DNA of 64,000 nucleotides from Deltaproteobacteria bacterium UBA6601. Its GTDB lineage: Bacteria; Myxococcota_A; UBA796; UBA9615. This document shows, piece after piece, positions 12,205 through 61,415 of the stretch. The stretch covers positions 26,553 through 90,552 of the forward strand of contig DJIF01000130.1 in NCBI GenBank assembly GCA_002433485.1, written 5' to 3'. Both the position numbers and the translations under genes were made by a program. Position 1 is the stretch's first letter. Every line of letters begins with the position of its first letter. The notes under the pieces were generated by a model. It ran no database searches. It saw only the letters and a list, made by a program, of their open reading frames with translations, and was not told where the DNA came from.

Positions 12205-13075
12205 TTTGTTGGCGCAACCGCTCAAACAGGAGGATTCCAGTGGCAACTGAGACGTTAAGGCTGGTAACTACTTCTCCTTGAATGGGAATGCTGAGCAGCT
12301 CCTCACAGCCCTCCTTGAGTTTTGCGCTGACTCCCCTGTCTTCGCCACCCATCACCAGGGCGATAGCACCGCAGAGGTTGGCCTCGAAATATGGGCGGTT
12401 ACCGGATGCCTCGGCGGCTAGAACGCGGATCGCGCGGCGGCGCAGCTGAGCCAGTACGCTGGTCATGCTCTCGCGCACCACCGGTACCTGCTCCGCCGCA
12501 CCCATCGCGATGCGCTGGGCCGTCGCTGACAGCGGCGCCCCGCGACGGGTGGGGACTACGATTGCATCTACTCCTGCGCAGGCCGCGCTGCGAAGCACGG
12601 CTCCCAGGTTCTGCTCGTATTGAACCTGATCGAGAATGAGTAAGAAGGGCTCGCGTTGCTCTTTGTCCAACCGGTCCAGGACTTCCGTCAGAGTTTGCTT
12701 TGGCAGGGCTTCAGCAAAACCAATGATGCCGTTGTGCACTGCGGTCATGGAGACCTCGTCGAGCTGTTCGCGAGGTAGCTTTTTGAGCGTAGTTCCGTAT
12801 TCCTGGCTCAGTGACTCGATGGCCTGCAGCTTGGGACATGGTCGGGCGCCTTCGTCCAACCAGATCTCGCGTACTCGTCGTGAACGCCGCAGCGAGGCAA
12901 GAACCAGATTCCGCCCCTCCAGTTGGTCCGGATATCGCTTGCTGCCGCCTCGGGTTCTAGCGGGCTTTGAGCCCCTCCTGCCAGCGTTGTTCCTGCGAGG
13001 TACGGACTTCTTCGCCTTGCGCCTCTGGTCTCTGCTATGACCGCGCCGGCCGCTGCTATGGTCGTCGCTGGCCAA
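12194..13075 (-). CDS. SpoU/TrmH-family RNA 2'-O-methyltransferase (RlmB-like) with Arg/Lys-rich N-terminal extension
   Basis: SPOUT motifs NLGAVLRSAACAGVDAIVVP, ALVMGGEDRGVS, NVSVATGILLFE. First approximately 55 aa are highly basic. 11-bp convergent overlap with gshA. Confidence 0.75.
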   Translation of the reverse strand: MASDDHSSGRRGHSRDQRRKAKKSVPRRNNAGRRGSKPARTRGGSKRYPDQLEGRNLVLASLRRSRRVREIWLDEGARPCPKLQAIESLSQEYGTTLKKLPREQLDEVSMTAVHNGIIGFAEALPKQTLTEVLDRLDKEQREPFLLILDQVQYEQNLGAVLRSAACAGVDAIVVPTRRGAPLSATAQRIAMGAAEQVPVVRESMTSVLAQLRRRAIRVLAAEASGNRPYFEANLCGAIALVMGGEDRGVSAKLKEGCEELLSIPIQGEVVTSLNVSVATGILLFERLRQQTMK

Positions 13076-13094
13076 AGACCCGCCCTATTTCTTC

Positions 13095-14507
13095 CTAGAG
13101 CAGGTTCGCTGCAAGTTCGGCCAACTCAGAACGCTCACCCTTGTTCAGAGTGATGTGGCCTGTAAGCCCGGAACCGCGAAAGTGTTCTACGACAAAGACC
13201 AGCCCATTTGAGGTGGAGTCCACGTAGGGGTTGTCAATCTGATACGGGTCGCCGGTCGCGATGATCTTGGTGCCCTCTCCAGCTCGCGAGATAATCGTCT
13301 TGATCTCGTGCGGGGTGAGGTTCTGAGCCTCATCGATGACCAGGTACTGGTGAGGAATGGAGCGCCCACGGATATAGGTGAGCGGCTCAATCTCTAACAG
13401 CCCTTCGTCAATCAGCTCTTGGTAACCCCTGCTTTTGGCCCCTCGGTCTTGGCTGCGGGAGTCGAGAATGAACTCGACATTGTCGTAAACAGGCTTCATC
13501 CAAGGGTTTAACTTCTCTTCAATATCTCCTGGTAGATACCCGATGTCTCGGCCGAGAGGGAATATGGGTCTGGAGACTAGAAGCCGATGGTAGCTGCGCT
13601 CGTCAGCGCACTTCTGCAGACCCGCTGCTATAGCCAGCAGGGTCTTGCCTGTACCCGCCTTGCCAAGCAGGGTCACCATCTTGATGTGGTCGTCCAGGAG
13701 CAGGTCCAGGGCGAAGCACTGCTCTTTGTTGCGCGGGAAGATTCCCCAGACCCCTTCCTTGATCCTCTTGACCAACTGAATGGACTTTCCGTCCGCGCCA
13801 ATTCTGGCCAGCACGGTCTGCTGACTGCGATCTTTGTTTCGCAGTACCAGGCATTCGTTAGGGGAGAAACCATCGCCGTCGAAGGGCATGCTCTCACTGT
13901 GAAACAACTCTTCCAGTTGCTCAGCGCTTAGTGAAACCTCTTCCTGGCCAGCGTATTGTTCTTCTACCAGGACCTTGCCGTGGGCATAGTCTTCAGAGCG
14001 AATCCCCAGGGCGTCCGCCTTGATTCTCATGTTGGTGTCTTTAGAGACCAGCACTACCTGTTGTGCGTCGTGGGCCTGACGGCGCAGATCACGGGCTACG
14101 GCCAGGATCAGGTTGTCTGCATGGTGCCTCTTGTCGGCCCAACTCCAGTCAACATGTACGCTCTCGCAGAGGTCGATGCGCAGGGAACCTGAGTCGGGAA
14201 GTTCTACTCCTCGGCTCAGACAGTCTGCTCCCGAATCCGCTCGTAAGCCATCGAGATAGCGAGAGAACTGGCGGGCATTGCGGCCAGTCTCGGTCAGTTC
14301 CTTCTTGAAGCGGTCCATCTCTTCAATGACCGTGATCGGCAGCACCACTTCGTGCTCTTCAAACTTGAACAGCGCATCGGGGTCGTGAAGAAGGACGTTG
14401 GTGTCGAGGACGTAGGTCCTGCGGTTGTCGGCGTGGGATCTTTGATCCACTGTCTGGCTCCGATCCTGGGCGCTGACCACGCCCTTCGATGACTGTGTTT
14501 CGAACAT
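13095..14507 (-). CDS. PhoH2/YlaK-type protein: N-terminal PIN domain fused to PhoH-like ATPase
   Basis: PIN signature YVLDTNVLLHDP at N-terminus. C-terminal Walker A LLGKAGTGKT, LVIDEAQNLT, IIATGDPYQID. Confidence 0.8.
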   Translation of the reverse strand: MFETQSSKGVVSAQDRSQTVDQRSHADNRRTYVLDTNVLLHDPDALFKFEEHEVVLPITVIEEMDRFKKELTETGRNARQFSRYLDGLRADSGADCLSRGVELPDSGSLRIDLCESVHVDWSWADKRHHADNLILAVARDLRRQAHDAQQVVLVSKDTNMRIKADALGIRSEDYAHGKVLVEEQYAGQEEVSLSAEQLEELFHSESMPFDGDGFSPNECLVLRNKDRSQQTVLARIGADGKSIQLVKRIKEGVWGIFPRNKEQCFALDLLLDDHIKMVTLLGKAGTGKTLLAIAAGLQKCADERSYHRLLVSRPIFPLGRDIGYLPGDIEEKLNPWMKPVYDNVEFILDSRSQDRGAKSRGYQELIDEGLLEIEPLTYIRGRSIPHQYLVIDEAQNLTPHEIKTIISRAGEGTKIIATGDPYQIDNPYVDSTSNGLVFVVEHFRGSGLTGHITLNKGERSELAELAANLL

Positions 14508-36021: not shown

Positions 36022-36114
36022 GCAGACCCGGCAGCTGAGCCCAGCGAGTCTTTTGGCAAGCTCTGCTGTTCCTTGTCCGCATCACATGCGCCTGCTGTTA
36101 CCCTTGGCACCTTG

Positions 36115-37446
36115 ATGAAGCACCCTGCACTCAAGTTGCTGTCTCTGCTGTTGCTGACCGGATGGTTGGCTGGCCCTTCTGCCCCACTTGTGCTGGCCGA
36201 GGAGGAACAGCAACAGGACGATGGCAGAGCAGAGCCGATGGATAACGATGAGGCCGAGCCCGGCTCCGCTGAATCTCGCCGGGATTCGGCCTTAAGCCCT
36301 CCTATTTGGAGCGCCAGCAGCAATAACTTCACTCGGGCCCGCGGCAGCTCAGGCCCGCGCTTGTTCCCCCAACGGCTCGGCCCGATCGCAGCCCAGGAGC
36401 CTCCTGCGCCGATGAGCTCGCTGTCTGCCCAGGCCTGTAACGCTTGCCACGGTGAACTACACGACCAATGGCGTTCCTCCGGACACTCTACCGCCTCCAG
36501 TAATCCCGTGTATCTGGCAGCCCTCAAAGCCCTTGGTGATCCGCCAGAGTGTCAGGATTGCCACCTGCCGTTAGCAAACCAACGCCCTTACCTGCACCTT
36601 GGGCCTGGTTCCAGCGGACCGCGAAGTGAGAACCCCAGCTACAGCCCGACCCTCGCTCAGGAAGGAGTAACCTGCGCTGCCTGCCATATTCGGGACGGGG
36701 TCATCTACGGGCCTCGCGAACTCCACAGCTCGGCCGCTCCGCATCCGGTTGCACAAGCTGAGAGCCTGCGCGGCACCGAGGCCTGTTCCTACTGCCACCA
36801 GCTGGCCCTACAGGGAGCAGAGGAGCATCCATTCCTTGACACCGTTGGAGAGTGGCTCCGATCGCCCTGGGGGGAAGCTGAGATTCCCTGTCAGGAGTGC
36901 CACATGCCGCGAGTCTCTGGTCAGGTGGCTGGGGCGCGCTACGCCGCTTACTCATCGCACGGCTTTCTGCGGCAGCGCGACCCGCAGGCCTTACGCAGGG
37001 CACTGACCTTAGAAGTGGCTTTGCGCAGCCCTGAGCTGGAGCGGGGCAGTGAACTCCGGGCCAGCGCAACCCTGCTCAACACAGGAGCCGGGCATGCGGT
37101 CCCGACAGGCGATCCAAGTCACCGCCTGGAGCTTCGTTTTGAGTTGGTTGATGCCCAGGGCAACCGCGCTCGGGGGACCTCGATAGAGTCGCACTGGATG
37201 GGCCGTGAGGTGCAAAGCACCCCACCCTTTACCCAACTCTCGGACACTCGGCTACAAGCCGCCTCAAGCCGGGTCTTTGACTATCGGCAGAAGCTCTCTA
37301 CCGCTAGTAAAGCGGGGCGATTCACCCTGGTAGTGAGCGTGCACTGGTGGGCGGTGGCCCCTGAGCGCGCTAAAAAGCATGAGCTTGATGAGCAGCAGGT
37401 TCGGGTTCAGGTGCTTGAGCAAAGAATCCCGGTTCCGGTGTTCTGA
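36115..37446 (+). CDS. pentahaem c-type cytochrome (secreted)
   Basis: Start [28 protein letters not shown] (signal peptide) by codon arithmetic. Five CxxCH motifs (CNACH, CQDCH, CAACH, CSYCH, CQECH) and a C-terminal beta-rich domain with a GAGHAVPTG motif. Confidence 0.7.
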
Positions 37447-47714: not shown

Positions 47715-48886
47715 CAGAGCAGCCTCCGTGGATGGAGGAAGGCGGGCGTCGAGTCCTTTTCTGTGCGGCCCAGAATGCCCGCTGCCAGGGCGCTGGCCGC
47801 AGCGCCGGCGAGGGATAACCCCCAGCCGCCAAAGCCAGCCAGAACCTGCACTCTGGGCCGCCCTGGCAGCGAACCTACCAGGGGCAGACCATCGCAACTC
47901 CAGGTAGTGATCCCCGACCAGCGTTCCTGGACCCTGGCCGCCTGCGCCCAAGGCAGGTAGTGGTTGATGAACTCGAGTTGCCGCTGGAACACCCCTTCCG
48001 ACAGGGTCAACGGGTTGGTGATTCCGGCACCCATCTCCGGCTGCTCTGCCCAGCGGCAACCGCTGAAGACCAATGCACCGGAAGCTTCTTGCATCCAGCT
48101 TTCAAAGCGGTGTCGAGCAAGCACCGGCACGCGCCGCTGCTTATCCAGCAGCGCAAGAGGCGCCGTCCGGAGAGCTTGTTGCCGAACTGGATAGAGCTTG
48201 TCAGCGAGCGCGCTATGAACTGCCGCACCACCCCAGCCAGCTGCAATCACAACCACTTCGGCGAGCTTGATCTCACCCCCGGCAAGTCGAACTTGCAGAG
48301 CTCCGCCAGGGCTTTTTCTGTCGATCAACTGGGCATCGCCTGGCAGCCAACCACAGCGCCCCTTTAGCCGGCCGCGAAGCGCAGCGCTTAGGGCGCCCGG
48401 GTCAAGCCATCCGTCCCCGGATATGTAGGTGGCTGCAACCAGCCCGGCTCCGAGTTCCGTGAGCTCATCTTCAGTAGCCAGCCTTGCCCTCTGCAGCCCA
48501 CCCTGGCTCCAACTCTGGATGAGTGCTCTTGCTGCAGTCCACTCTTCAGCTTCCTGATCGTCAAGGGCCGCGCGAAAGCTGCCAGCGCGGCCGTGGGCGA
48601 TGTTGAGCTTACCGGCCAGCTCCAGCAGGCCAGACACGGAACGCTGGGACCACTGCCAATAAGCTCTGGCTCGCTCTTCTCCAAGCCCATTACACAGACG
48701 CGCCGGGCTGTCCGCCCCGCCACAGGCGACCAGGCCCAGGCTGCGCTCGATGGTTGCTGTCACCACAGGACTGCCGATTCGCAACACAGCGCAATGGTCA
48801 GCCAGCAGATCGCTCAGCAGCAGCCCACTGAGACCGTCACCAATAACGATGACATCAAAGCACTGGGCGCTATCGGAGTAGCTCAC
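47714..48886 (-). CDS. FAD-dependent oxidoreductase (DAO family; glycine/D-amino-acid oxidase-like)
   Basis: N-terminal dinucleotide-binding motif VIVIGDGLSGL. DAO-family length and C-terminal GxGxxG-like GFGGWGLSLA. Confidence 0.65.
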   Translation of the reverse strand: MSYSDSAQCFDVIVIGDGLSGLLLSDLLADHCAVLRIGSPVVTATIERSLGLVACGGADSPARLCNGLGEERARAYWQWSQRSVSGLLELAGKLNIAHGRAGSFRAALDDQEAEEWTAARALIQSWSQGGLQRARLATEDELTELGAGLVAATYISGDGWLDPGALSAALRGRLKGRCGWLPGDAQLIDRKSPGGALQVRLAGGEIKLAEVVVIAAGWGGAAVHSALADKLYPVRQQALRTAPLALLDKQRRVPVLARHRFESWMQEASGALVFSGCRWAEQPEMGAGITNPLTLSEGVFQRQLEFINHYLPWAQAARVQERWSGITTWSCDGLPLVGSLPGRPRVQVLAGFGGWGLSLAGAAASALAAGILGRTEKDSTPAFLHPRRLL

Positions 48887-50607
48887 TTGATGCGGTAGCC
48901 ACCCATCTCATTGTTAAAAATCCAGGCCACCACATCACCGATCTTAAAGCCGACAGGCAAGTAGGTGCGCCGAGAGACTGCAGCAGATCCTTTGCGGGTT
49001 AGTTCCTCGCGGGCCCGTTCCATTTGGGTGAACCGCTCCTGCCAGCGCCTCATGTTGGCTGGGCGAAGATCGATCCAACCGCGCCGCGCCCAGAGGTCCA
49101 GGTCTGCCGGACTGTTGATCCTGGCAACTTTGTTCTTACCCTTGATTTCCGGAACCTTGATCACCGGGCCCCGCAGGAAACGATCGCCATCGGGGAGCAG
49201 GATGGGAATGCCAATAGAAACGGCCTGACAAGCTACGGCGGAGCCTTTGAGCCCCTCAGCCAGACGGGTGGCGACATGCTCAGCAGCGATGGGCTGGCCG
49301 TCTGCGTCGTGGACTGAGTTGAGCAACGAGTCGCCGAATGCGTCTTTCAGCATCCAGGCCTCGAACAGGAGCTTACTCAACTCCGGCGGCCCGAGGGCTC
49401 CCAGGGCAATGGATGGGACGCCATGACTGGCTTCCAGGCGATGGAGGTCTTTCATCGCCACCTGCCTGAGTTGACCGGCTCGATACGATGAGGTCATTAC
49501 CGCGCCATCGAGGGCAGCGATAACGTCATTGCCGGTATTGCCACCGCTGATTTCCATCACGATTCGATCGGCGATCTCCTCGGGAGTAACGAACTCCATT
49601 TGCTTGAGCGCCGTAATCGCACCGAATTCGCCCTTAGCGAACAGTCCATTCTCACCCGTATTGACGACTGCTACCTCAAGATTCTCGCCAGTAGCTTGAT
49701 AGCGTTCTTCGCTTTCCTTGGTCACCAGTTCACTCAGGCTCGCGCCCGCTACCTCCTGGGGCTTATAGAGCGGCACTGCAGCGCCGCCATGGCCCGGTAT
49801 CTCGGTGATCTGCACCGCTCGATAGCCGATCATTGCGGCCGGCTTGATCTCCTTGACTGCTGGCGCCTCTGGAGTTCTGGCCAACAAAAACAGCAGGCCG
49901 GTGTGGGCAAAGGCCACGGCATTTTTGGCCAATAGCGTTCGGCTCGGCCGGTCCTCGCTATGAGTGTAGGGAATGTTAAGCCCCATGCCCCCGGTACCCG
50001 TGGTTCCTACCTTCACATAGATGGAGGTGTTGGCATCCGTTGTGGCCCGGAACAAGAGCCTCACGTGTCTGATGATCTGCGGCATCGCCTGGGCCAGCAA
50101 GCCGGTCTCCAAATCCGCAGGCAGGTCCGGGACAGCGCCCAGATCACCGCCATCAGTGAGCCGTCCCAGGTCGTAGCGCAGCGAAGCGGTGCTGTCGAAA
50201 ATATCCTGATAGGAAATCCCCGTAGCTGTGTTCACGCAGTCAACGATAGCGTCGGGTGAGTGGCGACGAATGATCACGGCGAGGTGATTGCACTGATATG
50301 CAGCCTCAAAGTCACCAAAGGTGAAGTCCAACAGCTTCTCGCGGCGGTCCGGGCTGCCGAGTATCTCGCCCCTGGACATGTGCGCGAACTCAGTGGGGAC
50401 GAACAGGTTGCCGGCTTCAGGGACCCACTCGACCTCAGGATGCTCGGCGACCAACTCCTTCACCGCAGCTTGAGACTCCGCCAGCTTCAAAGAGGCGACC
50501 ACCACCCGCTTTGGCTGCAGCTCCCTGGCGAGCAGACGGCAGGTCGCCATGCCCACGAGGCCTGCGCCCCCGAATAGCAGGAAGGTTGAGTTCTGGTGCA
50601 CGTTCAT
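48883..50607 (-). CDS. NAD(P)-binding Rossmann-fold protein of unknown function (574 aa)
   Basis: N-terminal FLLFGGAGLVGMATCRLL dinucleotide-binding motif (saccharopine-dehydrogenase/SDR-like). Remainder unassignable by eye. 4-nt overlap with downstream FAD oxidoreductase. Confidence 0.5.
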   Translation of the reverse strand: MNVHQNSTFLLFGGAGLVGMATCRLLARELQPKRVVVASLKLAESQAAVKELVAEHPEVEWVPEAGNLFVPTEFAHMSRGEILGSPDRREKLLDFTFGDFEAAYQCNHLAVIIRRHSPDAIVDCVNTATGISYQDIFDSTASLRYDLGRLTDGGDLGAVPDLPADLETGLLAQAMPQIIRHVRLLFRATTDANTSIYVKVGTTGTGGMGLNIPYTHSEDRPSRTLLAKNAVAFAHTGLLFLLARTPEAPAVKEIKPAAMIGYRAVQITEIPGHGGAAVPLYKPQEVAGASLSELVTKESEERYQATGENLEVAVVNTGENGLFAKGEFGAITALKQMEFVTPEEIADRIVMEISGGNTGNDVIAALDGAVMTSSYRAGQLRQVAMKDLHRLEASHGVPSIALGALGPPELSKLLFEAWMLKDAFGDSLLNSVHDADGQPIAAEHVATRLAEGLKGSAVACQAVSIGIPILLPDGDRFLRGPVIKVPEIKGKNKVARINSPADLDLWARRGWIDLRPANMRRWQERFTQMERAREELTRKGSAAVSRRTYLPVGFKIGDVVAWIFNNEMGGYRIK

Positions 50608-52982: not shown

Positions 52983-53903
52983 GTGACCAGGAATCGCAGC
53001 CCAGGGGCAGAACTTCGCGTCGGATTATTGGTCTTGTTGGCGCTCGCCATCTTTGCCTGGCTTAGCGTTGGTGTAGGAGGGCTGCAGCTCGGGCCGAGCC
53101 TCGAAGTCCAGGCGGTGTTTGATGACGCTGCCGGTTTGGTGCCGGACTCGGCGGTGAAGGTTGCTGGGGTTCGAGTCGGGAGTGTGTTGACCCTTAAGGT
53201 GGAGAAGGATCAGGCGGTGGCCACCCTGCGCCTAGACCCCGCGGCCGAGTTACGCCAGGACGTCAGGGCAGAGATCCGCGCGCGAAGTCTGTTGGGTGAG
53301 AAGTACATCGCCCTTACCCCGATCGGGAGTCAGGCTCCCCTGCTCCAGAGCGGTGACCAGATTGCGGACACCCGGCCCGGCATTGAAATCGGCAAGCTCG
53401 TCTCCCAGTTCGGGCCTCTGCTCGCCAACATCGACCCAGACGACATGGCTCGGCTGGTCCAGAATCTGGGCGAATTGACCGCCGGCATGGGCAAAGAGGC
53501 GCCAGAGCTGATGACCTCGCTGCGATCGCTCGTCACCAAGCTTGACGGTGCGGCCGAGATGCTGCCGGAAGTTAAACAGGAATTACCCCTGTTGCTCACC
53601 GATCTGCGCCGCCTAAGCTGGAAGCTGGAGCGGTCGCTGCAACGGGCCGACCAGATGGTTGCCAATGCTGACGTCGCCGCGCAGGCGGTCCCCATCACGA
53701 CGCAGAAAGTCAACGCCACCCTCGATCAACTCAGCCCAGGACTCGACGACCTGAATCGGGCATTGGAGCAATCGGATGAGGCCGTTGCCCGCCTCAACAA
53801 GGCTCTGACCAAGCTCGACGGCTTTAACGAGGAGTCGCTGCGGCGCTTGCTCAGAGAAGAGGGTGTGCTGGTGCGGCTGCGCCCCCAGCGCACCAAGAAC
53901 TGA
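52983..53903 (+). CDS. MCE/MlaD-family substrate-binding protein with extended helical C-terminus
   Basis: N-terminal TM anchor + MCE domain (VKVAGVRVGSV…). Coiled-coil tail. Confidence 0.8.
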   Translation: MTRNRSPGAELRVGLLVLLALAIFAWLSVGVGGLQLGPSLEVQAVFDDAAGLVPDSAVKVAGVRVGSVLTLKVEKDQAVATLRLDPAAELRQDVRAEIRARSLLGEKYIALTPIGSQAPLLQSGDQIADTRPGIEIGKLVSQFGPLLANIDPDDMARLVQNLGELTAGMGKEAPELMTSLRSLVTKLDGAAEMLPEVKQELPLLLTDLRRLSWKLERSLQRADQMVANADVAAQAVPITTQKVNATLDQLSPGLDDLNRALEQSDEAVARLNKALTKLDGFNEESLRRLLREEGVLVRLRPQRTKN

Positions 53904-53918
53904 GCGACTGCTTGCCAA

Positions 53919-54455
53919 CTAGGAGGAGTCAGGCTCCGGATCGGCTGGCGCATCTTCTGCCAGTGGTTTGAGCCTGAAGCTGGCCTGAATCTCTAAACTA
54001 TGCTCGGTCATCAAGGCGCGCAGGTCGTCGCCTATCTTAAGCTTCTCCAGGTACATCCGGACCTCTCTTGCCACCAGCCCGACCAGCTCCTCTCGACCTT
54101 TGGCAGTCATCCGTACGGCGCCGGTCAGGAACTCTCGGGGCTTTACCTCTTCACCGGCTTCTCTAAGGCGCCCAGTCGTCTGATTTACTGCTTCAGCTCC
54201 AACCCTTAGCAACCGGGTTGCGAGATCACCGAGGCCACCATCCCGGGCACTGGTTCGGAACTCTTCACCATCTGCGTGCAGGCTGAACTCAGCTCGAAAC
54301 GCATCAGACTCCTGGTCTTGCTGGCGGCCTGGGTCACCTTCGGCTGCAGCCCCCCCTGGGCCTTCATGGTCGTCTTGAGGCGCGGTGTCGCCGGTCGGCT
54401 CCGTTGATTCTGGCACTGCCTCGCTGTCGGTCATCGCCTCTTCCTTCCGCTGCAT
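53919..54455 (-). CDS. hypothetical acidic protein (possibly phasin-like; unassigned)
   Basis: 178-aa ORF, Asp/Glu-rich N-terminus and helical C-terminal half. No motif recognised. Confidence 0.35.
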   Translation of the reverse strand: MQRKEEAMTDSEAVPESTEPTGDTAPQDDHEGPGGAAAEGDPGRQQDQESDAFRAEFSLHADGEEFRTSARDGGLGDLATRLLRVGAEAVNQTTGRLREAGEEVKPREFLTGAVRMTAKGREELVGLVAREVRMYLEKLKIGDDLRALMTEHSLEIQASFRLKPLAEDAPADPEPDSS

Positions 54456-54802
54456 GCGGGGTCCTTGCCCTTTGCTCGGCGCGATCTGCGCGCTTTCTTC
54501 CAGTTCCGCGGGTCTTCGCCATCCCAGTCTTCTGCAATGATGTCCTGCAGTTCTTCCACGTAGGAGCAGGACTCCGGCAGCATGCCTCGCAAGACCGCCG
54601 ATGGGTCGACCTTGTTACATTGGGGCTCCGCTTCGAAGCGAGCCCCGTAGACCTTACAGTTACGAGTTTCCAGGTCCAGGTATCGACACGGGACGTCGGT
54701 TGAAACCCAGCGACCGCCCACCCATTCACTCTCAAAGCAGCACTCCGCACAGCGATTGCAGAGCTCCTCCCATTGATGGTGGGTGTAACTACGTCCCAGC
54801 AT
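54431..54802 (-). CDS. YkgJ/UPF0153-family Cys-cluster (CxxCxxCC) protein
   Basis: Start placed at internal M (MLGRSYTHHQ…; AGAGG RBS) so that CNRCAECC lies near the N-terminus as in the family. Later CRYLDL…C…C pattern. The track ORF (to 54973) adds 57 codons including a (HK)3 stretch. Confidence 0.5.
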   Translation of the reverse strand: MLGRSYTHHQWEELCNRCAECCFESEWVGGRWVSTDVPCRYLDLETRNCKVYGARFEAEPQCNKVDPSAVLRGMLPESCSYVEELQDIIAEDWDGEDPRNWKKARRSRRAKGKDPACSGRKRR

Positions 54803-55001
54803 CTGAAGAACCTCTAGGCGTGGATGCGAACTTCGGGCAGCACGCGGCATGGGAAAGATCATAACTCGACTAGACGTCGGGCAACACCGCGTGCGGACGA
54901 AGTGGACCGGTGGCATGAACAGGGAGCAAGGCTTGTGCTTGTGCTTGTAGGCCAGTGCACCCTCTGATACCAAAGGGCATCTACCGTGCCGAGGAGGCCC
55001 C

Positions 55002-57347
55002 TTGACCAGTAAAAATACTGCCAGCGGCTATACGCCACCGGGTTTGCCGGTCCTGTTCTACCTGCCCACCCTGCTGTTGGTGATTCTGCTGCAAGCTGGA
55101 TTATCAGGGGTCCTGGTTTGGGGCATCCTTTGCTATCTGGGTGCCGAACGATTCTTCCCTCGCCGCCCCCGCAGACATCTGGCGGGAGTAGTCTTGAATC
55201 TATTCGGCGCGGTCTGCATCATCTTTCTGACCGCAAATGGCGTGCGTCCCTTGGCACTGCTCCTGTTTGTGCCGGGCATCGTGTTGGCGGGGGTTCCGCC
55301 GCTGCTATCTCCTACCGCCCGATCGCGTATTGAGGCCGCTCCCATCAGTTGCGCGATGCTCTCTATGCTGAGTGTGCTTGGCCTCTACAGTCTGGGCGTC
55401 TGGCAAGGTTCTCTGCCGGCGATCAACGACGATTTTCTGTTTGAGTTGCGTCAGGATGAGAGTCCCGAGCCGCTCAGCGAGGCTGAGCGGCTGGCAGCCA
55501 TGGCGGTGGTTGATGCGGTCTTAGGTGGCGCCGACCTCGACATCAACAGTCTGCCCGCACGGCTCGGCTCCAAACACTACGGAAGAGTTTGGGTGACTTT
55601 GTACCGCAATTCGGTAAAGGATCGCTGGTTGCGCGGTGAATCGCCGCCCCACAAGCCCCTTTATGGTCAGATCGCGTTGGCGGCTCGGAGCGCCATGGAG
55701 CAAAGCAAGACTGCGCATGGCTGGCAGCAGGGTGAGGAGTTGCGGGTTCAAATCGACCTTGGCGGACCGGAGACTGAGATCCTACCCAACTTGTTGCGTA
55801 GCGGCCTGCGCAAGCTTATCGCCAGCTTTACCGGCGGCCGTCCGCACTGGGATCTGTTGGTCTACCGCACGGAGCCAGGGGTGGTCGGTCTACGCATGAA
55901 CGGCGATGGTGGTGCTGGGGTGGTTCTGCCCGGCGATGTGACCAGCGACTCGCTGCTCACGCCTCGATCACTCAAACGGCGCTATCGAACCGACAACTTT
56001 GAGGCGGTCTGGAACGAACTCAGTCGCCGAGCTCAGCAGCCCAAGGCAGAGCCGGGCTCCTTGCCATTCTGGACCTTCAGAACCTACTCCTTTGTCCGTC
56101 CGCTGCCTGCTGAACCGAGAACCGTGGAGCTGTTTCGAGGCAATGTTCTGGGGCCAGAGCAGGTGGACGAGCGGATCCTTCTTGACGCAATCGACCGCGC
56201 AGGCCGTTGGCTGCTCGAGCAGGTGGAGGAAGATGGGCGCTTCGACTACCAATACTTCCCCTCTAGCGACAGTCACGGCAAGGGCTACAACGAAGTGCGC
56301 CATGCAGGTTCCGTATATGGCCTCTTCCACATGGCTGACCTGTGCGCCCAGGAGCCCAGCCTGAGATCTCAGCGAGACGCCTATTTGAATGCAGGCACCC
56401 TTGCTATGGAGCGGGTCTACCGCAACCTGGGAACGCCACCAGGCATGCCGGCAGAACGGGGCTATGTAACCTTTCTCGAAGGCAAGCGCGGACGTAAGAG
56501 CAACTCCGGTTCGCCAGCCTTAACCTTGCTCGGCTTCTTGATGCGTCCCGCGCCCGCAGATGTGAGCTCACCCGAACTCCAGTCGAAGGTCTGGAAGGAA
56601 GGTGATGAGGCGATTATGGAGGGGTTAGCGAAGACGCTGCTGCACATGATCGATGACGACGGCAAGGTCTATCGATTGTGGAAGGAGGCCCTCGAAGGCG
56701 GGGGAGTCGTCAAGGAACCCCTTTACTTTCCTGGCGAGGTGATGCTGGCACTGGCGCGCTACTACGAGAGGACCGGAGATGAAGTTTGGCTGGAGGGGGC
56801 GCGGTCGATCGGCCGACGCCAGATTCGTCATGCCCGCAAGCCCTGGGTAGTGCCTGATCACTGGGTCATGCAAGCCCTGGACATTCTGGACCGAACCGAC
56901 CCCGGTAACGACGAATGGCGCTCCGGCGCATATGCCATGGGAGCCCGGTACGTGCGCGAGCAGTTCCCACCCCAGCGCCCCCCTTTCTCAGACTACATCG
57001 GCGCCTTTCGGCGGGTTCAGGAAGTCCCGAGGACGACCCGTGCGGCGGCTCGCGGTGAGGCCATCGGAGGAGTGGTCAGAATTGCTTGGCGCGCGGGCCA
57101 TCCAAGCTGGCAGTGGGAGCGCTCACTTATTGAAGGATCTCGACATCTTATCGAACAAATGTTTACGTCTGACAATAGCTATTTCATGGCCAACCCCGCC
57201 GAGGCGAAAGGAGCGGTGCGAATGGGCATTGTCGACACCCACTGTCGCATCGACAACAATCAACACGCAGTGGTCGCCCTAAGCAACGCCTTGACTGCGC
57301 TTCGTCATCGCAGGCCCGGCTGGGGCGGTCGCGGAGAGGGCCCTTGA
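55002..57347 (+). CDS. polytopic membrane protein with AMMECR1-like middle domain and C-terminal (alpha/alpha)6-toroid-like domain
   Basis: About 5 TM helices in residues 1-150. Residues approximately 180-340 match the AMMECR1 pattern (RVWVTLYRN…WLRGESPP…GLRMNGDGGAGVVLPGDV…W) but with Cys of LRGCIG replaced. C-terminal approximately 430 aa is helix-rich with paired-helix periodicity. Unassigned family. Confidence 0.5.
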   Translation: MTSKNTASGYTPPGLPVLFYLPTLLLVILLQAGLSGVLVWGILCYLGAERFFPRRPRRHLAGVVLNLFGAVCIIFLTANGVRPLALLLFVPGIVLAGVPPLLSPTARSRIEAAPISCAMLSMLSVLGLYSLGVWQGSLPAINDDFLFELRQDESPEPLSEAERLAAMAVVDAVLGGADLDINSLPARLGSKHYGRVWVTLYRNSVKDRWLRGESPPHKPLYGQIALAARSAMEQSKTAHGWQQGEELRVQIDLGGPETEILPNLLRSGLRKLIASFTGGRPHWDLLVYRTEPGVVGLRMNGDGGAGVVLPGDVTSDSLLTPRSLKRRYRTDNFEAVWNELSRRAQQPKAEPGSLPFWTFRTYSFVRPLPAEPRTVELFRGNVLGPEQVDERILLDAIDRAGRWLLEQVEEDGRFDYQYFPSSDSHGKGYNEVRHAGSVYGLFHMADLCAQEPSLRSQRDAYLNAGTLAMERVYRNLGTPPGMPAERGYVTFLEGKRGRKSNSGSPALTLLGFLMRPAPADVSSPELQSKVWKEGDEAIMEGLAKTLLHMIDDDGKVYRLWKEALEGGGVVKEPLYFPGEVMLALARYYERTGDEVWLEGARSIGRRQIRHARKPWVVPDHWVMQALDILDRTDPGNDEWRSGAYAMGARYVREQFPPQRPPFSDYIGAFRRVQEVPRTTRAAARGEAIGGVVRIAWRAGHPSWQWERSLIEGSRHLIEQMFTSDNSYFMANPAEAKGAVRMGIVDTHCRIDNNQHAVVALSNALTALRHRRPGWGGRGEGP

Positions 57348-58867
57348 TGGAGGAGCCCTGCAGGCTTCCATCACCGACACAGGCTGCAACGACGGGGATG
57401 CTGGCGGTTTTCCTGGTGGCCATTGGTTTCGCCACCCAAACCATCGCTCGCGACAACCCTGCAGGTAGCGAGCTGCAAGGCGCATCCGCACTGGCCAGGC
57501 AGGTGGCAAGAGGGACCGGTCAGGTGTTGGGGGGTGGGGGGCTCTCGGCGCCGCAACTGGGGATGACCCTGGTCTCCGGCGCGGGGGATGTGGTCCAGTT
57601 GGATGAGCTGATTGCAGCTGGTCCAGCGGTGTTGTTCTATTTCAGCGCTGGGTGCTCTCATTGCGAAGAGGTCGCCCCGGAGATTGGCAGGCTCGGTCAG
57701 CGACTCAATGCGGATGCAGCGCTGATCGCGATCGCCAGTGGCAGCAATAGCCTCAGCGCAGCGCGCGACTTTGTGGCCCGTCATCAACTACCCGGATCTG
57801 TTTACAAGGACTTCAGTCGTCAATTCAGTTCTCGAAATCGCCTGCAATCGACCCCCAGCGTGTTGCTGACCGCTCCCTCCCCTGAGCCCGGCGGGTTCGA
57901 GACTCTGGCCGAATACCGCCCCTTTGCACCAGGCATGTCGCTGCTGGTCGAGATGCGCCTGGCCAGCCATCTCGGGGAGGACCCCTGGTCCCGAGTGGAA
58001 CAGGGCCAGTACTACGGCCCCAAGGCCTGCGGTGCCTGCCATCTTGACGAGTACATGTCCTGGGGCTTGAGTCACCACTCCATTGCCTATTGGACCTTGC
58101 ACAAAGGGCAGCGAGCAGAGGACCCCGCCTGTGTTGGGTGTCATGTCACAGGTATGGGAGAGCCCTCAGGCTTTGTGCTTGGAGATCATCACTCGCCCCT
58201 TGCAGATGTTGGGTGTGAGGCTTGCCATGGACCCGGTGGCGCCCACGGCGGATCGAGCAGGGACCCAAAGCTTTCGTGTGAGACCTGCCACGACAAGGAC
58301 CACTCGGTTCGATTTGACCTGGAACGTGCCTTACCGCATGTCGACCACTTTCGGCCCGAGATCCTGGAACCGGTGGCGTATCGAGAGCTTCGTCAGGCCC
58401 TTGTCGATGGTCGCGCTGAGCGGCCGCTAATGGCCTTTCCAAAAGGCAAGCATCTGGGCCAGGGAGCTTGTGTTTCCTGTCACCCGGCAGCCAGCAAGGG
58501 ATGGCGCAGCGGTCCTCATGCGGGCGCCTTGAAGACGCTCACCAAAAGAAACGCACAGCACAACCCAGAGTGCATCTCCTGCCATGACCTGGCGCGAGAT
58601 TCAGATGCGGCAGAACGGGGCTACTTCGGCGAAGGTGTGTCCTGTGAGAGTTGCCACGGCCCCGGCGAGCAACATGTGGCGGCCAGAGGTGGCACCGACA
58701 ACATCCTTGGGCTGGGAAGCTCCTGTCCTGAGTGCATTATTGAGGCTCTATGTACGAGCTGTCACACTCCTGAGCAGGACCCGAGCTGGAGCCTGACGGG
58801 GGATCTCGATCGACTGAAACGTTGGCATCGCGCTCCTGCCCCTGCTCGACGACCAGCTTCACCTTGA
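57344..58867 (+). CDS. thioredoxin-fold (TlpA/ResA-like CxxC) domain fused to octahaem c-type cytochrome
   Basis: N-terminal hydrophobic anchor, Trx-like FYFSAGCSHCEEVAPE, then eight CxxCH motifs (CGACH, CVGCH, CEACH, CETCH, CVSCH, CISCH, CESCH, CTSCH). ATGA overlap with upstream gene. Confidence 0.65.
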   Translation: MMEEPCRLPSPTQAATTGMLAVFLVAIGFATQTIARDNPAGSELQGASALARQVARGTGQVLGGGGLSAPQLGMTLVSGAGDVVQLDELIAAGPAVLFYFSAGCSHCEEVAPEIGRLGQRLNADAALIAIASGSNSLSAARDFVARHQLPGSVYKDFSRQFSSRNRLQSTPSVLLTAPSPEPGGFETLAEYRPFAPGMSLLVEMRLASHLGEDPWSRVEQGQYYGPKACGACHLDEYMSWGLSHHSIAYWTLHKGQRAEDPACVGCHVTGMGEPSGFVLGDHHSPLADVGCEACHGPGGAHGGSSRDPKLSCETCHDKDHSVRFDLERALPHVDHFRPEILEPVAYRELRQALVDGRAERPLMAFPKGKHLGQGACVSCHPAASKGWRSGPHAGALKTLTKRNAQHNPECISCHDLARDSDAAERGYFGEGVSCESCHGPGEQHVAARGGTDNILGLGSSCPECIIEALCTSCHTPEQDPSWSLTGDLDRLKRWHRAPAPARRPASP

Positions 58868-61415
58868 GCATTTCGGCCACCGCCGGCAGAAGTTGTTCGG
58901 CATTGGCCTTGAGCTTGCGAGTACCTTCCGGCAGCGACGCAAGAAAGCGTCGACCATAACTACGTCGATGGATGCGCGAGTCGAGCACCAGCACCACCCC
59001 TGAATCGGTGCGGTGTCGAATCAGTCGGCCAAAGCCCTGCCGGAAGCGCAGCACCGCTTGTGGCACCGCCAGAGCGCGGAAGGGATCAAGCCCCCGACGT
59101 TGGAGCAGCTCTGCCCTTGCCACCTGAATGGGATCGGTAGGCACCCGGAACGGCAAGCGCGGAATGATAACCACCTTAAGGGCATCACCACGCACATCGA
59201 CTCCCTCCCAGAACGAATCCGTGCCGCACAGAACTGCCTTGCCGGCGTCTCGAAACAGTGTGAGGAGTCGTTCCCGGGGAAGGTCACCCTGGCGCAGAAT
59301 CGAGTACCTCGGTCCCAGCTTGTGGCTCAGCCGCGAGGAGACCTGGCGCAACATTCGGTATGAGGTAAACAGCACAAAACAGCGCCCCTCACTGAGAGTC
59401 GCAACCCGCGCAACCAGCTCAACCACAGCTTCCAGGTGACCCGCTTCATTGGGCTCAGGAAAGTCGCTTGGCAGCCCCACCAGCGCCTGGCGACTGTAGT
59501 CAAAGGGCGAGCGAATGGTCAGGGTGCGTAGGCGTTCCTGAGCATCCTCTTGTCGCCCAAGGCCGGTGCGATCCAAGAAGTGATCAAAGCTATTGGCAAC
59601 CGACAACGTAGCTGAGGTGAGCACCAGCGAACGGCTGCCCTCCACCAACAGCTCGCGGATGATCTCCTCGACGTCGACCGGGCGTAACGAGAACCGGGCA
59701 CTTGGGACATCGTCGTCGGCGCTTTGAACCTGCCCCCAACGAACCGTCTGCGGGTCCTCCGGCAGCATGCGACCCAGCGAAGAAGCGGCATCTACCAGTC
59801 GTCGCTGCACCGTGGCCATATCCAGATCAACCTGCCGAAATCGGCTTCGAAATGCCTGCGGCATGTCTTCTAGATGGCTGCGGACAATGCCAACCTTCTG
59901 TGCGGTTCGGGTGAGAGATGCTGCAAGCTCATCAAAGCGCTCGTTGAGACGCTCGAACAAGGCGGGACGAGCGTCGTGGAGCTGGTCGTCAAAGCGAAAG
60001 CTACCGGACCTGGATGCTCCTGCCCTCCCCGAGCGAGCCAGCTGGTCCCCTTCCAGATCGGCTTCGTTGACTGCCTCGAGCAGATCCCAACCTACATCCT
60101 CAAGGTGTAACCGCGCCTTCTCCCTGCAGCGTTCAGTAGCTTCCAGCAGAGAGTCCAGGGCTTTGGCCAGATTGAGTTCTTCATCCTCACTGCCAGCCCC
60201 TTCCAGCCCCTGCCGAAGTCGCACAGCCAGCCCCTTGCGCCGACCGCGAACCGGACGAAGCCGGCCCAGTTGCCGCAGAATCCCGCGCCCGGTGACATCC
60301 CTGCCGGCGAAGTCAGTCGCCACATCTTCGATGTGATGGGCCTCGTCGAGGACGATGTGGTCGTAGCGAGGCAGGAGCCCACCAGGGACGCCCTGCAGGC
60401 GAAGCCCCAGATCGGCGAGCAGCAGGTGATGATTGACCACCAGCACCTGTGCCTTAGCGGCCTGGCGTCGACTCTGATAGTAGAAGCAGCTGTTGTAGTG
60501 CTTACAGCGGGCCCTGAGACTGTGCTCGGTAGAGCTCTCTACACGTTCCCATAAAGAGTGGTCTGGGACGAAGGGCAGGTCGTCCCGCTCGCCATTGGGG
60601 GTGACTGCCGACCAGCGCTCCAGCTCCTCGAGGAAAGCGCGTTCTTCAGGTTCTGCATCTTCGCGCGCTTCCGACAGCCGGTCCTCCAGCTTTCGTCGGC
60701 ACAAATAGTTACTTCGACCCTTCAATATAGCCAGTTCAAGTTCTGGAAAAAGCTCTTTAATTACTGGCGCATCATGGTCCACGAGCTGCTGCTGGAGATT
60801 GCGCGTTCTGGTCGCGACGGCCACTCGCTCGCCACCCTGCAGCGCGCGCAGCACACTGGGCACCAGATAAGCCAGCGACTTCCCGGTGCCGGTACCAGCC
60901 TCAACGACCAGCACCGCGCCATCGTTCTGAGCGCTGGCCACTGCCTCTGCCATTTCCAGCTGTTCTGCGCGGGGCTCATAGCCAGGAAGCCGCGCTCTCA
61001 GGCCTTGGTCGCCCTCAAACACAGCCCGAACCTCAGCGCTGCTGATGTCCCTACGGGTGGTCTTCGGTGGCTCTACAACTACGTAGACCTCGCTGGCCTG
61101 GTTGTTGACGATGAAGAAGCCAATCCCTTCCTGGCCATAGTGGGCGGCGAGGGCTAAATCGGCATCGGATGGGGCCAGAACCCCCGAAGGGTGGTTGTGA
61201 ATAATGACCTCGCCGCTGCGGCCCACCTGCTTTAGTGCGGGCACAGCCCCCTGGTTGCCGCGACAGAAAACTTCTACTTCTGTGACCTTGCCGACTCCCC
61301 CACGGCGCCCCACAAAGAACACTTCGTTGCCACCCGCTCGGTCGATCTCCGTGGCCAGCTCAGTGCGGGCCGCAGGCTGTATGTAGTGGCCGATTGGTGG
61401 ACTTGATGGTGGCAC
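58737..61415 (-). CDS. DinG/Rad3-family ATP-dependent DNA helicase with N-terminal RadC-like JAB/MPN domain
   Basis: N-terminal approximately 130 aa: RadC-JAB signature …EVIIHNHPSGVLAPSDADLALA…. Helicase motif I EAGTGTGKSLAYL, DEAH box VLDEAHHIED, three Cys in the Fe-S insertion region (LCRRK…RARCKHYNSCFY), C-terminal RecA-like domain. Confidence 0.75.
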   Translation of the reverse strand: MPPSSPPIGHYIQPAARTELATEIDRAGGNEVFFVGRRGGVGKVTEVEVFCRGNQGAVPALKQVGRSGEVIIHNHPSGVLAPSDADLALAAHYGQEGIGFFIVNNQASEVYVVVEPPKTTRRDISSAEVRAVFEGDQGLRARLPGYEPRAEQLEMAEAVASAQNDGAVLVVEAGTGTGKSLAYLVPSVLRALQGGERVAVATRTRNLQQQLVDHDAPVIKELFPELELAILKGRSNYLCRRKLEDRLSEAREDAEPEERAFLEELERWSAVTPNGERDDLPFVPDHSLWERVESSTEHSLRARCKHYNSCFYYQSRRQAAKAQVLVVNHHLLLADLGLRLQGVPGGLLPRYDHIVLDEAHHIEDVATDFAGRDVTGRGILRQLGRLRPVRGRRKGLAVRLRQGLEGAGSEDEELNLAKALDSLLEATERCREKARLHLEDVGWDLLEAVNEADLEGDQLARSGRAGASRSGSFRFDDQLHDARPALFERLNERFDELAASLTRTAQKVGIVRSHLEDMPQAFRSRFRQVDLDMATVQRRLVDAASSLGRMLPEDPQTVRWGQVQSADDDVPSARFSLRPVDVEEIIRELLVEGSRSLVLTSATLSVANSFDHFLDRTGLGRQEDAQERLRTLTIRSPFDYSRQALVGLPSDFPEPNEAGHLEAVVELVARVATLSEGRCFVLFTSYRMLRQVSSRLSHKLGPRYSILRQGDLPRERLLTLFRDAGKAVLCGTDSFWEGVDVRGDALKVVIIPRLPFRVPTDPIQVARAELLQRRGLDPFRALAVPQAVLRFRQGFGRLIRHRTDSGVVLVLDSRIHRRSYGRRFLASLPEGTRKLKANAEQLLPAVAEMLKVKLVVEQGQERDANVSVDRDPPSGSSSGPAQECDSSYIEPQ

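Follow-up and report, generated by a model that had tools for sequence, protein, structure and literature searches.

The window, by which we mean the whole 64,000-nucleotide stretch of DNA analysed here, carries two genes, A and B, whose pairing is conserved among a group of uncultured Myxococcota-like bacteria. The pair matches no described system; it is undescribed, yet made of known folds. Gene A (55002..57347, + strand), delimited by its ORF, its homologues and an AF2 model, encodes a 781-aa membrane-anchored protein with an AMMECR1-like domain and an (alpha/alpha)6 toroid. Gene B (57344..58867, + strand), delimited by its ORF, Pfam and AF2, encodes an exported fusion of a thioredoxin (Trx) fold and an octahaem c-type cytochrome. 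Its start is TTG 57344 in the ORF listing (507 aa) and ATG 57347 according to gene callers (506 aa).

The two genes meet at TTGATG (57344..57349, + strand), which includes the stop codon of A, TGA (57345-57347). The overlap with the start of B is 4 nt from TTG 57344 (TTGA) and 1 nt from ATG 57347 (TGATG), rather than the ATGA read in an earlier note on this DNA. A 4-nt NTGA stop/start overlap is retained in 21 of 23 homologous loci. The translational coupling proposed in that note is real, and both ORFs lie where it placed them. Of the 27 loci in the TM-anchored orthologue group, which span 36-100% identity, 24 have B as the next gene after A: it lies directly 3' of A in all 15 subfamily-1 loci and in 9 of 12 subfamily-3 loci. 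The adjacency holds down to 36% identity while the flanking genes differ; the earlier note had named a lack of linkage across related genomes as grounds against its own proposal, and linkage is what those 24 loci display. The distances of A and B co-vary (Mantel r = 0.85, a value reached by 0 of 2,000 permutations), and the nearest neighbour was identical for both proteins in 19 of 23 cases. These results show that A and B are inherited together with the 4-nt overlap.

Gene A starts with TTG, as supported by full-length homologues of 763-800 aa, and a Shine-Dalgarno-like GAGGAGG read from the sequence (54991..54997, + strand) ends 5 nt short of this codon. Searches of A against Pfam and NCBIfam models returned no match, and all 52 close homologues are named 'hypothetical' in their sources. 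A is therefore a member of an unnamed, unannotated but widespread family, in line with the earlier view that it lies outside any described one. The AF2 model of A (pLDDT 89, pTM 0.88) is confident and bears out the domain calls. Residues 1-135 (55002..55406, + strand) hold A in the inner membrane by about four poorly conserved TM helices, as judged by hydropathy, the helices of the AF2 model (residues 15-51, 58-78, 82-97 and 114-134) and the positive-inside pattern of the family; the earlier count of about five is revised accordingly. No conserved His or Cys was found in this anchor, and family conservation revealed no conserved cysteine anywhere in A.

Residues 136-385 (55407..56156, + strand) form an AMMECR1-fold domain according to the AF2 model and a superfamily profile. 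The domain shares the two-RAGNYA-domain fold of the AMMECR1 family (PF01871; PH0010, MM0484, ST0229 and human AMMECR1), and the homology is detectable in sequence with the superfamily profile, which matched PH0010 at 1.5e-16. A conserved P..DD segment (P139, D143, D144) opens the domain, and the RG of the signature RGChG motif is kept (R211, G212). The Cys of this motif is absolutely conserved in the AMMECR1 family and has been proposed to be catalytic (PMC2034487). By contrast, this Cys and the loop that follows it are missing from every A-type member, showing that the domain of A lacks the catalytic Cys of the family. A also differs from the AMMECR1 family in that its domain is fused to a toroid, is predicted to be extracytoplasmic rather than cytoplasmic or nuclear, and is encoded by genes not adjoined by Memo or radical-SAM genes. 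Across the superfamily, the AMMECR1-like domain is poorly conserved compared with the toroid.

The toroid, a six-hairpin (alpha/alpha)6 fold and the probable catalytic domain, occupies residues 386-775 (56157..57326, + strand) on the evidence of the AF2 model and conservation. Superfamily-conserved residues are R433-H434, Y575/E579, D619/W621, D664, R684/E686 and R749/D751/Q754/H755. They make up one motif per hairpin (RH, Y..PGE, PDxW, DY.GG...R.E and R.D..QH), kept across thousands of remote relatives, and in the 97 remote relatives compared each hairpin has conserved polar residues (R, H, E, D, Q). The toroid matches many six-hairpin families roughly equally; sequence-profile matches favour cellobiose 2-epimerase/AGE, GH76 and GH127. 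Unlike the six-hairpin enzymes (AGE/cellobiose 2-epimerase/YihS, GH76, GH88/GH105, GH127), A falls below every Pfam cut-off and carries an N-terminal AMMECR1-like domain and a membrane anchor; the toroid shares about 8-14% sequence identity with them, in alignments that pair one hairpin repeat with a different one and so run out of register. It also lacks the Cys/Zn site of GH127.

We consider it improbable that the toroid is a non-enzymatic binding or scaffold domain, akin to the thioester domain of complement/alpha2-macroglobulin or the alpha-domain of transcobalamin, that holds a ligand or cofactor, or B, at the membrane. The poorly conserved membrane anchor would fit a tether, but the polar residues on every hairpin form an active-site pattern, the thioester CGEQ motif was not found in the toroid, and A has no conserved Cys. 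More improbable still, the toroid would be related to class II terpene cyclases or to prenyl-binding toroids and would handle a polyprenyl or other isoprenoid lipid on the outer side of the inner membrane. A weak Prenyltrans match in an archaeal relative and the lipid-related neighbours (an acyltransferase and the Mla operon, see below) point in this direction; however, neither a DxDD nor a QW motif was found among the conserved residues, and both the sequence-profile matches and the polysaccharide contexts of remote relatives argue otherwise.

B opens with a hydrophobic segment (residues 10-31; 57374..57439, + strand) that is, from the sequence and the AF2 model (pLDDT 87.9, pTM 0.81), either a signal peptide or a signal anchor. 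The earlier description of B as membrane-anchored thus stands as one of two options, the N-termini of its homologues often being a cleavable signal or a lipobox. A thioredoxin domain of the TlpA/ResA/DsbE fold follows at residues ~60-215 (57524..57991, + strand), as indicated by Foldseek (1lu4, ResA, DsbF and SdbA; TM 0.75-0.80), a PDB profile search and conservation; AhpC-TSA and Redoxin matches on residues 68-164 were slightly under the Pfam cut-offs. It carries CSHC (57653-57664, + strand), whose CxHC pattern is invariant across 118 sequences, and a cis-Pro loop reading STP. B shares the fold, the CxxC, the cis-Pro loop and export with the extracytoplasmic TlpA/ResA/CcmG/DsbE thioredoxins but differs from them in its DsbA/PDI-like CxHC, in place of CxPC or CPTC, in being covalently joined to eight haems, and in having no ccm or res genes adjoining it. 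Instead of DsbD or CcdA, B would have the haem chain as its redox partner. Grafting CPHC into a thioredoxin raised its Em by 66 mV, and a natural CPHC thioredoxin lies at -32 mV, compared with -89 to -124 mV for DsbA (PMC4395160).

Residues 216-500 (57992..58846, + strand) comprise two tandem cytochrome c554-like tetrahaem modules by Pfam, PDB profile search and conservation. Pfam Cytochrome_C554 (PF13435) matched above its cut-off (3.5e-23) and Nitrosomonas europaea cytochrome c554 (1bvb) at 3.5e-17, each in two stretches. There are exactly eight CxxCH motifs, seven invariant distal His, and one extra CPEC (58724-58735, + strand), an invariant CPxC in the homologues, six residues ahead of the haem-8 motif. 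Unlike cytochrome c554, B has the module doubled to give eight haems, is fused to a Trx domain, bears the extra CPxC and has no hydroxylamine-oxidation context around it; with 50 bits, where the NCBIfam cut-off is 400, it does not qualify as a CycA equivalog. B is thus an exported protein that combines a thioredoxin of the TlpA/ResA fold, its C-x-H-C invariant, with two c554-like tetrahaem modules, and the domain assignments made earlier for both proteins hold in the AF2 models, profile searches and Foldseek.

Since c-type haem is attached in the periplasm, B must reside there. We derived the topology of A from hydropathy and charge heuristics, which predict the K/R-rich loops of the anchor to be cytoplasmic; throughout the A family, the loops follow the positive-inside pattern and the exit segment is acidic. 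Among its remote relatives, 84 of 97 have a signal peptide or hydrophobic N-terminus and 22 of 97 a lipobox; Trx-fused paralogues have single anchors, and P0052 has an LSGC lipobox. Both soluble domains of A therefore probably face the periplasm, the orientation the earlier note had proposed.

The surroundings of the pair are less constant. Divergent from A lies a gene for a CxxCxxCC cysteine-cluster protein (54431..54802, - strand; 123 aa as called) and, downstream of it, one for a 178-aa small acidic protein (53919..54455, - strand); both are conserved neighbours in subfamily-1 loci. The former had been called YkgJ-type; its divergent orientation and cysteine cluster stand, but it scores as YcgN family/PF03692, below the cut-offs of both (NCBIfam YcgN, 2.5e-19). 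The acidic protein has no Pfam family and was traced with a local HMM, which matched in L003, L005, L008, L012-L019, L021, L022, L026 and L048. The earlier Mla-like and helicase calls hold, the former being an operon (two MlaE, ABC, MlaD) and the latter DinG-type with a weak JAB/RadC N-terminus; their linkage is subclade synteny, outside the conserved core. An LPLAT-type acyltransferase gene, translationally coupled just upstream of the A-type gene in most relatives, is absent from the window. In L056, L059 and L062 the gene directly upstream encodes a Polysacc_synt_3 flippase, and in L056 an SLT transglycosylase is encoded downstream; P0320 is adjoined by genes for an ABC-2 exporter and by two GT2 genes. 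In the gene tables examined, A/B loci have no ccm, res or msr genes beside them.

Each protein also belongs to a wider family. The AMMECR1-like plus toroid combination is no rare one-off but a large unannotated secreted family of 2,889 clusters at 50% identity, whose typical member is a secreted protein or lipoprotein of about 600 aa, sometimes in an envelope-polysaccharide context; in the loci examined, most of these relatives lack a cytochrome as neighbour. The Trx-octahaem fusion forms a wider family of its own, and B-type proteins that stand alone (43-45% identity) occur in unrelated, variable contexts and nest between A-linked clades. The same MAGs contain an A-type paralogue (subfamily 2) with a Trx fold fused in cis at its N-terminus, each MAG having at most one B-linked and one Trx-fused copy. 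This domain is homologous to the Trx domain of B (hhalign 96%, E = 4e-9) but Cys-less, with CxHC and cis-Pro replaced, so that redox chemistry as such is not required for A-type function. The earlier analogy with YyaL/SPATA20 (a DUF255 thioredoxin-like domain plus an AGE-like toroid) fails as membership, neither B nor the paralogue matching PF03190/DUF255, but the association of a Trx fold with a six-hairpin toroid does recur, in one polypeptide, in subfamily 2. There, unlike in YyaL/SPATA20, the AMMECR1-like domain sits between the two and the Trx-like domain has no cysteines; in the window the Trx belongs to a second protein, which bears the haems, and the A-type module is predicted to be extracytoplasmic.

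These wider distributions bear on whether A and B act together. It is possible, if somewhat doubtful, that they share an operon and not a function, B being a general periplasmic thiol:cytochrome oxidoreductase, A an independent envelope glycan/glycolipid enzyme, and the overlap a means of compact co-expression. The stand-alone B-like genes nested within A-linked clades, the A-type relatives without cytochromes and the lack of a conserved Cys in A all favour separation; the adjacency despite changing flanks, the conserved overlap and the second occurrence of a Trx fold, fused to the A-type paralogue, speak against it. We regard it as unlikely that B is a reductase in which low-potential haems feed the CxHC, as in TlpA, ResA, CcmG or Etrx, for a periplasmic target such as apocytochrome CxxCH (possibly its own), oxidised Cys/Met of envelope proteins, or a disulfide/polysulfide-type small molecule held by A. 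The Trx fold is indeed nearest the ResA, CcmG, DsbE and Etrx class, c554-type modules can, as in N. europaea c554, include haems near -280 mV, and MccSep sets a precedent for haem-to-S-S reduction. However, a CxHC such as the invariant one of B is typically found in oxidising or isomerising Trx folds, the pair has no ccm, res or msr gene beside it, and bis-His c-haems would have to work thermodynamically uphill to reduce a Trx-type disulfide unless their potentials were unusually low.

We tentatively prefer to see A and B as a conserved, co-translated periplasmic module of two proteins, an envelope-acting enzyme and a haem-wired thiol oxidoreductase. The toroid of A would be the catalytic or ligand-binding unit and the AMMECR1-like domain an accessory lid or binding domain. 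The substrate may be an envelope glycan, glycolipid or lipid-linked compound, and in most relatives the product of the upstream-coupled LPLAT-type acyltransferase, whose gene would have been lost in the subclade of the window. Because A has no conserved Cys, it is neither redox partner nor substrate of B through thiols of its own. The earlier proposal of a redox/thiol-handling module thus fits B but not the pair, given also that remote relatives of A lie beside polysaccharide flippases, exporters and glycosyltransferases. Since the paralogue in the same genomes carries its Cys-less Trx fold in cis at the N-terminus of an A-type protein, the Trx domain of B may dock on A. B would link two-electron thiol/disulfide chemistry, at CxHC with a relay via CPxC, to a one-electron haem chain. 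As a working analogy, DsbA-DsbB (or VKOR) likewise combines a periplasmic Trx fold and a CPHC-type motif with transfer of electrons to the respiratory chain. B differs in its TlpA-like fold without the helical insertion of DsbA, no DsbA being among the top 50 Foldseek hits, and in having no quinone-reducing membrane partner, which its covalent haems would replace; the oxidase direction in B is presumptive. The CxHC motif alone does not decide that direction. With its DsbA/PDI-type dipeptide, however, and with the oxidising TlpA-fold proteins DsbE, DsbF and SdbA among the structures nearest to it, B most likely passes electrons from thiol to haems and would serve as a thiol oxidase connected to the respiratory chain.

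Both genes of the pair appear in the ORF listing where the earlier note had placed them. ORF A (55002–57347, + strand; 781 aa), which combines a transmembrane (TM) anchor, an AMMECR1-like domain and an (α/α)6 toroid, begins with TTG just after a GAGGAGG, a start supported by the lengths of its homologues (763–800 aa). ORF B (+ strand, ending at 58867; 506–507 aa), an exported thioredoxin (Trx) fused to an octahaem cytochrome c, starts at TTG 57344 or ATG 57347, and its sequence reads CSHC, exactly eight CxxCH motifs and one additional CPEC. The two genes do overlap as described, but not through ATGA: with the TGA stop of A at 57345–57347, the junction is TTGA or TGATG. Pfam and the gene tables also bore out the neighbours, an operon of two MlaE genes, an ABC gene and MlaD upstream and a convergent DinG-type helicase whose N-terminus is a weak JAB/RadC match; a YcgN/PF03692-type Cys-cluster gene and a small acidic gene diverge from A. 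Scans for promoters and terminators returned no more matches than expected by chance, and an Rfam scan of window 53800–59000 gave no match. The convergent JAB-DinG helicase ORF overlaps the 3′ end of B by 131 nt (window 58737–58867), its tail lying antisense to the conserved haem-8 motif. This overlap is also called in the homologous locus L001 but is absent from L003 and L008, so the tail of the helicase is probably an extension that is not conserved.

Two further features of the window are recorded here. At 36022–37443 (+ strand), a 474-aa ORF that contains five CxxCH motifs and matches Pfam MtrC/MtrF domain II/IV (2.9e-8) encodes another multihaem cytochrome, positionally unrelated to the A/B pair. 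At 48883–50607 (− strand) and upstream there is a 572–574-aa protein that the precomputed gene tables of L001, L003 and L008 call PF27054 (Beta_methylindole_red_C), whereas a direct Pfam scan of the window ORF gave no match; several related MAGs keep this protein, together with a DAO-family oxidoreductase, a short way upstream of the Mla-like operon.

A scan of GTDB yielded 60 loci, which local HMMs split into three groups. Subfamily 1, the window type (about 780 aa), is followed directly by B in 15 of the 15 loci that have downstream DNA, and subfamily 3 (826–916 aa, with a different four-TM N-terminus and 36–43% identity) in 9 of 12. Subfamily 2 (about 820 aa), in which an anchor and a Cys-less Trx-like domain are joined to the AMMECR1 and toroid domains, has B next to it in none of 17. 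Since no MAG has more than one copy from subfamilies 1 and 3 combined, these two behave as one B-linked orthologue group, with B next in 24 of 27 loci; subfamily 2 is likewise present in at most one copy per MAG. The two genes are thus linked across related genomes, the point on which the earlier note had made its pairing depend. Stop and start overlap as NTGA in 21 of 23 A–B pairs, the distances among A proteins follow those among B proteins (r = 0.85, reached in 0 of 2,000 Mantel permutations), and the nearest neighbour is identical for A and B in 19 of 23. Flanking genes differ between loci; in L005 there is no Mla operon, and additional genes separate B from the helicase. The start of A is overlapped in most loci by the gene of an LPLAT-superfamily acyltransferase (PF01553, with GlsA, OlsF and Aas types as its nearest, weak matches), which is missing in the subclade of the window.

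The B family is wider than its A-linked set (>454 matches, with source names such as 'redoxin family protein' or 'multiheme c-type cytochrome'). Three relatives with 43–45% identity stand alone in unrelated contexts, and stand-alone B-like proteins nest between A-linked clades in an NJ tree. In L010 (1–4263), ten consecutive genes on one strand include eight called as small MopE (Cu-binding) genes, and a stand-alone B-like gene lies a few kb downstream of them. In L013 (5944–9024), the A frame continues beyond its expected stop into the B region as a 1,026-aa ORF, with B intact at 8249–9739; this is probably a frameshift or a MAG assembly error. Many MAGs with Myxococcota-type loci (L012–L058) are labelled 'uncultured Rickettsiales bacterium', which looks like an error of taxonomy introduced by an automated pipeline.

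No Pfam-A or NCBIfam model matched A and all names among its relatives are hypothetical, so that A falls into no well-characterised family, as had been suspected. Its AlphaFold2 model, made from 34 homologues, is confident (pLDDT 89, pTM 0.88). The AlphaFold2 models, profile searches and, for B, Pfam uphold the domain calls that had been read from motifs in both proteins. In A, about four TM helices occupy residues 15–134, and both the AMMECR1 fold (two interlocked RAGNYA domains) and the (α/α)6 toroid fold of the six-hairpin glycosidase/AGE superfold are present. Binding of b-haem or quinone by the TM region was considered and dropped, as neither His nor polar residues are conserved there. 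The signature of the AMMECR1 family is RGChG, with an absolutely conserved, exposed Cys that has been proposed to be catalytic (PMC2034487). A keeps only R211 and G212 of this signature, followed by residues such as E, M, A or S; the Cys and the loop after it are missing in all 34 aligned members, and the family alignment contains no conserved Cys anywhere in A. AMMECR1 (PF01871) is intracellular, whereas the domain in A is predicted to be extracytoplasmic. In prokaryotes AMMECR1 is linked to Memo-like dioxygenase and radical-SAM genes, neither of which is adjacent in L001–L008.

PDB profile matches of the toroid were to cellobiose 2-epimerase, AprG, AGE, GH76 and GH127 (5e-8 to 3.5e-5). All were out of register, hairpin repeat on hairpin repeat, for which reason we rejected the cellobiose 2-epimerase alignments as a map of catalytic residues. 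Because known families are matched only in this out-of-register manner, the toroid appears to be a family of its own inside the six-hairpin superfold. Relatives of A score against GH127 or GH88 mostly below the Pfam cut-off. The catalytic residues of the known families are an Asp–Asp in GH76, an Asp pair in GH88, a Cys and Zn site in GH127, and an Arg with two His in AGE/CE. The GH127 site is absent from A-type proteins, since A lacks a conserved Cys, and the conserved R, H, E and W of A are similar to the AGE/CE-type site by composition only. Toroid residues kept in remote relatives form one group per hairpin (R433-H434, Y575/P577/G578/E579, D619/W621, Q654, D664/G667, R684/E686 and R749/D751/Q754/H755), whereas almost nothing is conserved in the AMMECR1-like part. 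On this pattern, we regard the toroid as the putative core, responsible for catalysis or ligand binding, and the AMMECR1-like domain as an accessory.

A word-indexed search returned 52 close relatives of A, all unnamed and from Myxococcota or 'Deltaproteobacteria' MAGs. An exhaustive profile search reached 2,889 cluster representatives (50% identity) at E ≤ 1e-3, 387 of them at ≤ 1e-30, and the A-type module is far commoner than the earlier note could know. The bulk of these relatives are 580–700 aa long and span the AMMECR1-like and toroid part only. Five of ten relatives tested passed the Pfam AMMECR1 cut-off, a few that of GH127 or GH88, and one bore a source name, 'hypothetical protein'. 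A hydrophobic N-terminal segment is found in 84 of 97 remote relatives and a lipobox-like motif in 22. In TM-anchored members, the positive-inside rule holds for the loops on either side of the last TM helix, and the segment that follows this helix is acidic and bears a conserved P..DD motif; subfamily 2 has a single N-terminal anchor, with a lipobox (LSGC) in its member P0052, and planctomycete relatives have cleavable signal peptides. From these features we infer that the AMMECR1-like and toroid domains of A would be extracytoplasmic and thus share a compartment with B, whose c-type haem attachment requires export.

In the Polyangia-type loci L056, L059 and L062, the gene immediately before the A-like one encodes a Polysacc_synt_3 (Wzx-like) flippase, and in L056 a lytic transglycosylase lipoprotein (SLT plus TPR) lies downstream; in the raw ORF listing around distant loci, mostly high-GC noise, the flippase and SLT neighbours alone were confirmed by Pfam. 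L060 has an upstream ORF with a similar N-terminal sequence. The relative P0320 adjoins an ABC-2 exporter and two GT2 glycosyltransferases, and P0181 is near a sulfatase and its radical-SAM maturase, with a TPR-redoxin protein 2.6 kb off. These neighbours, together with the coupled acyltransferase, point to envelope glycan or glycolipid chemistry for A-type proteins, in a small and anecdotal sample of loci. A loose Trx-fold association of this kind is recorded for L073, where a 671-aa TPR and AhpC-TSA/Redoxin/Thioredoxin protein (11596–13611) lies 2.6 kb from a secreted AMMECR1–toroid relative, with a sulfatase, an anSME-type radical-SAM/SPASM gene and a CsgG gene nearby.

The model of B is also confident (pLDDT 87.9, pTM 0.81). 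Residues 60–215 adopt the TlpA/ResA/DsbE/DsbF/SdbA fold (Foldseek TM 0.75–0.80 to 1lu4, ResA, DsbF and SdbA), and AhpC-TSA and Redoxin fall just under the Pfam cut-off on residues 68–164. With TlpA/ResA/CcmG-type thioredoxins, B shares the fold with its central insert, the CxxC, the cis-Pro loop and a hydrophobic N-terminus (export signal). The Trx motif reads C-[P/S/G]-H-C without exception in 118 B-family members, most commonly CPHC and in the window CSHC; C103, H105, C106 and P170 are invariant, S168 and T169 of the cis-Pro loop STP nearly so, and an invariant CPxC stands six residues ahead of the haem-8 motif. The rest of B consists of two c554-like tetrahaem modules, with Cytochrome_C554 (PF13435) on two stretches (3.5e-23; 82.8 bits against a cut-off of 20.8) and 1bvb likewise on two (3.5e-17). 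Eight CxxCH motifs occur in 116 of the 118 homologues and seven distal His are invariant. With 50 bits where 400 are required, B is not a member of the NCBIfam CycA equivalog.

A dipeptide of the CxHC type is typical of DsbA and PDI, and several of the structures nearest to B (DsbE, DsbF, SdbA) are oxidising members of the TlpA fold. DsbA itself places CPHC in a Trx fold with an inserted helical domain, whereas the fold of B is TlpA-like, with no DsbA structure among its top 50 Foldseek matches. Electrons may pass from a substrate dithiol to CxHC, then to CPxC and into the haem chain. The main rival has them flow in reverse, from the haem chain to CxHC. A reductive role, in the maturation of cytochrome c or in cuproprotein assembly and with ccm, res or sco genes close by, is typical of the TlpA/ResA/CcmG class; the gene tables of the loci examined contain none of these genes. 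MccSep, a multihaem selenoprotein polysulfide reductase, is a precedent only, for haem-driven S–S cleavage; as a relative of B we rejected it, as it has five haems and an Ig-like domain and no Trx. CPHC grafted into a thioredoxin shifts its Em upwards by 66 mV, a natural CPHC thioredoxin has −32 mV and DsbA −89 to −124 mV, and redox potential is not set by the motif alone (PMC4395160). A as the disulfide substrate of B was dropped, since A has no conserved Cys. For the same reason, the thiol-handling role that had been proposed for the whole pair fits B alone.

In subfamily 2, the N-terminal domain gives weak AhpC-TSA and Redoxin matches and aligns with the Trx domain of B (hhalign, 96% probability, E = 4e-9), with CxHC and the cis-Pro replaced. 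This fusion of a Trx fold to an A-type body is a hint, of the Rosetta-stone type, that such a fold may dock on the AMMECR1–toroid body; being Cys-less, it also shows that an A-type body can, to judge from sequence, work without redox-active cysteines. YyaL/SPATA20, to which the earlier note had likened the combination, carries DUF255/PF03190 on the toroid chain, whereas the Trx of the window is on a separate gene, and Pfam found no PF03190 in A, B or subfamily-2 proteins. Subfamily 2 occurs in the same MAGs as the A/B pair (L004, L006, L032–L058) and never adjoins a cytochrome. Its AMMECR1 domain passes the Pfam cut-off. Upstream lies a conserved, uncharacterised 217–236-aa gene, and what follows downstream differs between loci (in L004 a Pyr_redox_2 oxidoreductase, in L006 Peptidase_C1 and MopE).

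The A/B pair fits no described system, and its parts belong to known folds; the literature searched contained no paper linking AMMECR1 with a toroid domain or describing a thioredoxin–c554 fusion. A and B could be the core of an undescribed periplasmic redox system, in which a thioredoxin with a DsbA motif, hard-wired to an eight-haem chain, would make or break S–S bonds via the respiratory chain without a DsbB, VKOR or DsbD-type membrane partner, its substrate held by a new extracytoplasmic class of AMMECR1–toroid enzymes; we consider this reading improbable. To our knowledge, the biochemical role of the AMMECR1 fold has not been established anywhere, and the system, if real, would give the first functional context for such a domain outside the cytoplasm. 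The A-type family, with 2,889 clusters at 50% identity, is large and lacks annotation: neither Pfam nor NCBIfam has a model for it, and sources give it no name. Since the pair is carried by Myxococcota-like bacteria that are uncultured and of marine or aquatic origin, heterologous expression is the practical way to study it, and the pair is small and well defined enough for this. An extracytoplasmic AMMECR1 fold joined to a six-hairpin barrel could represent a new class of enzymes active on the envelope or on carbohydrates. The thioredoxin–multihaem fusion with which it forms a conserved pair would, if it functions as proposed, be a new link of periplasmic thiol/disulfide chemistry to electron transport.
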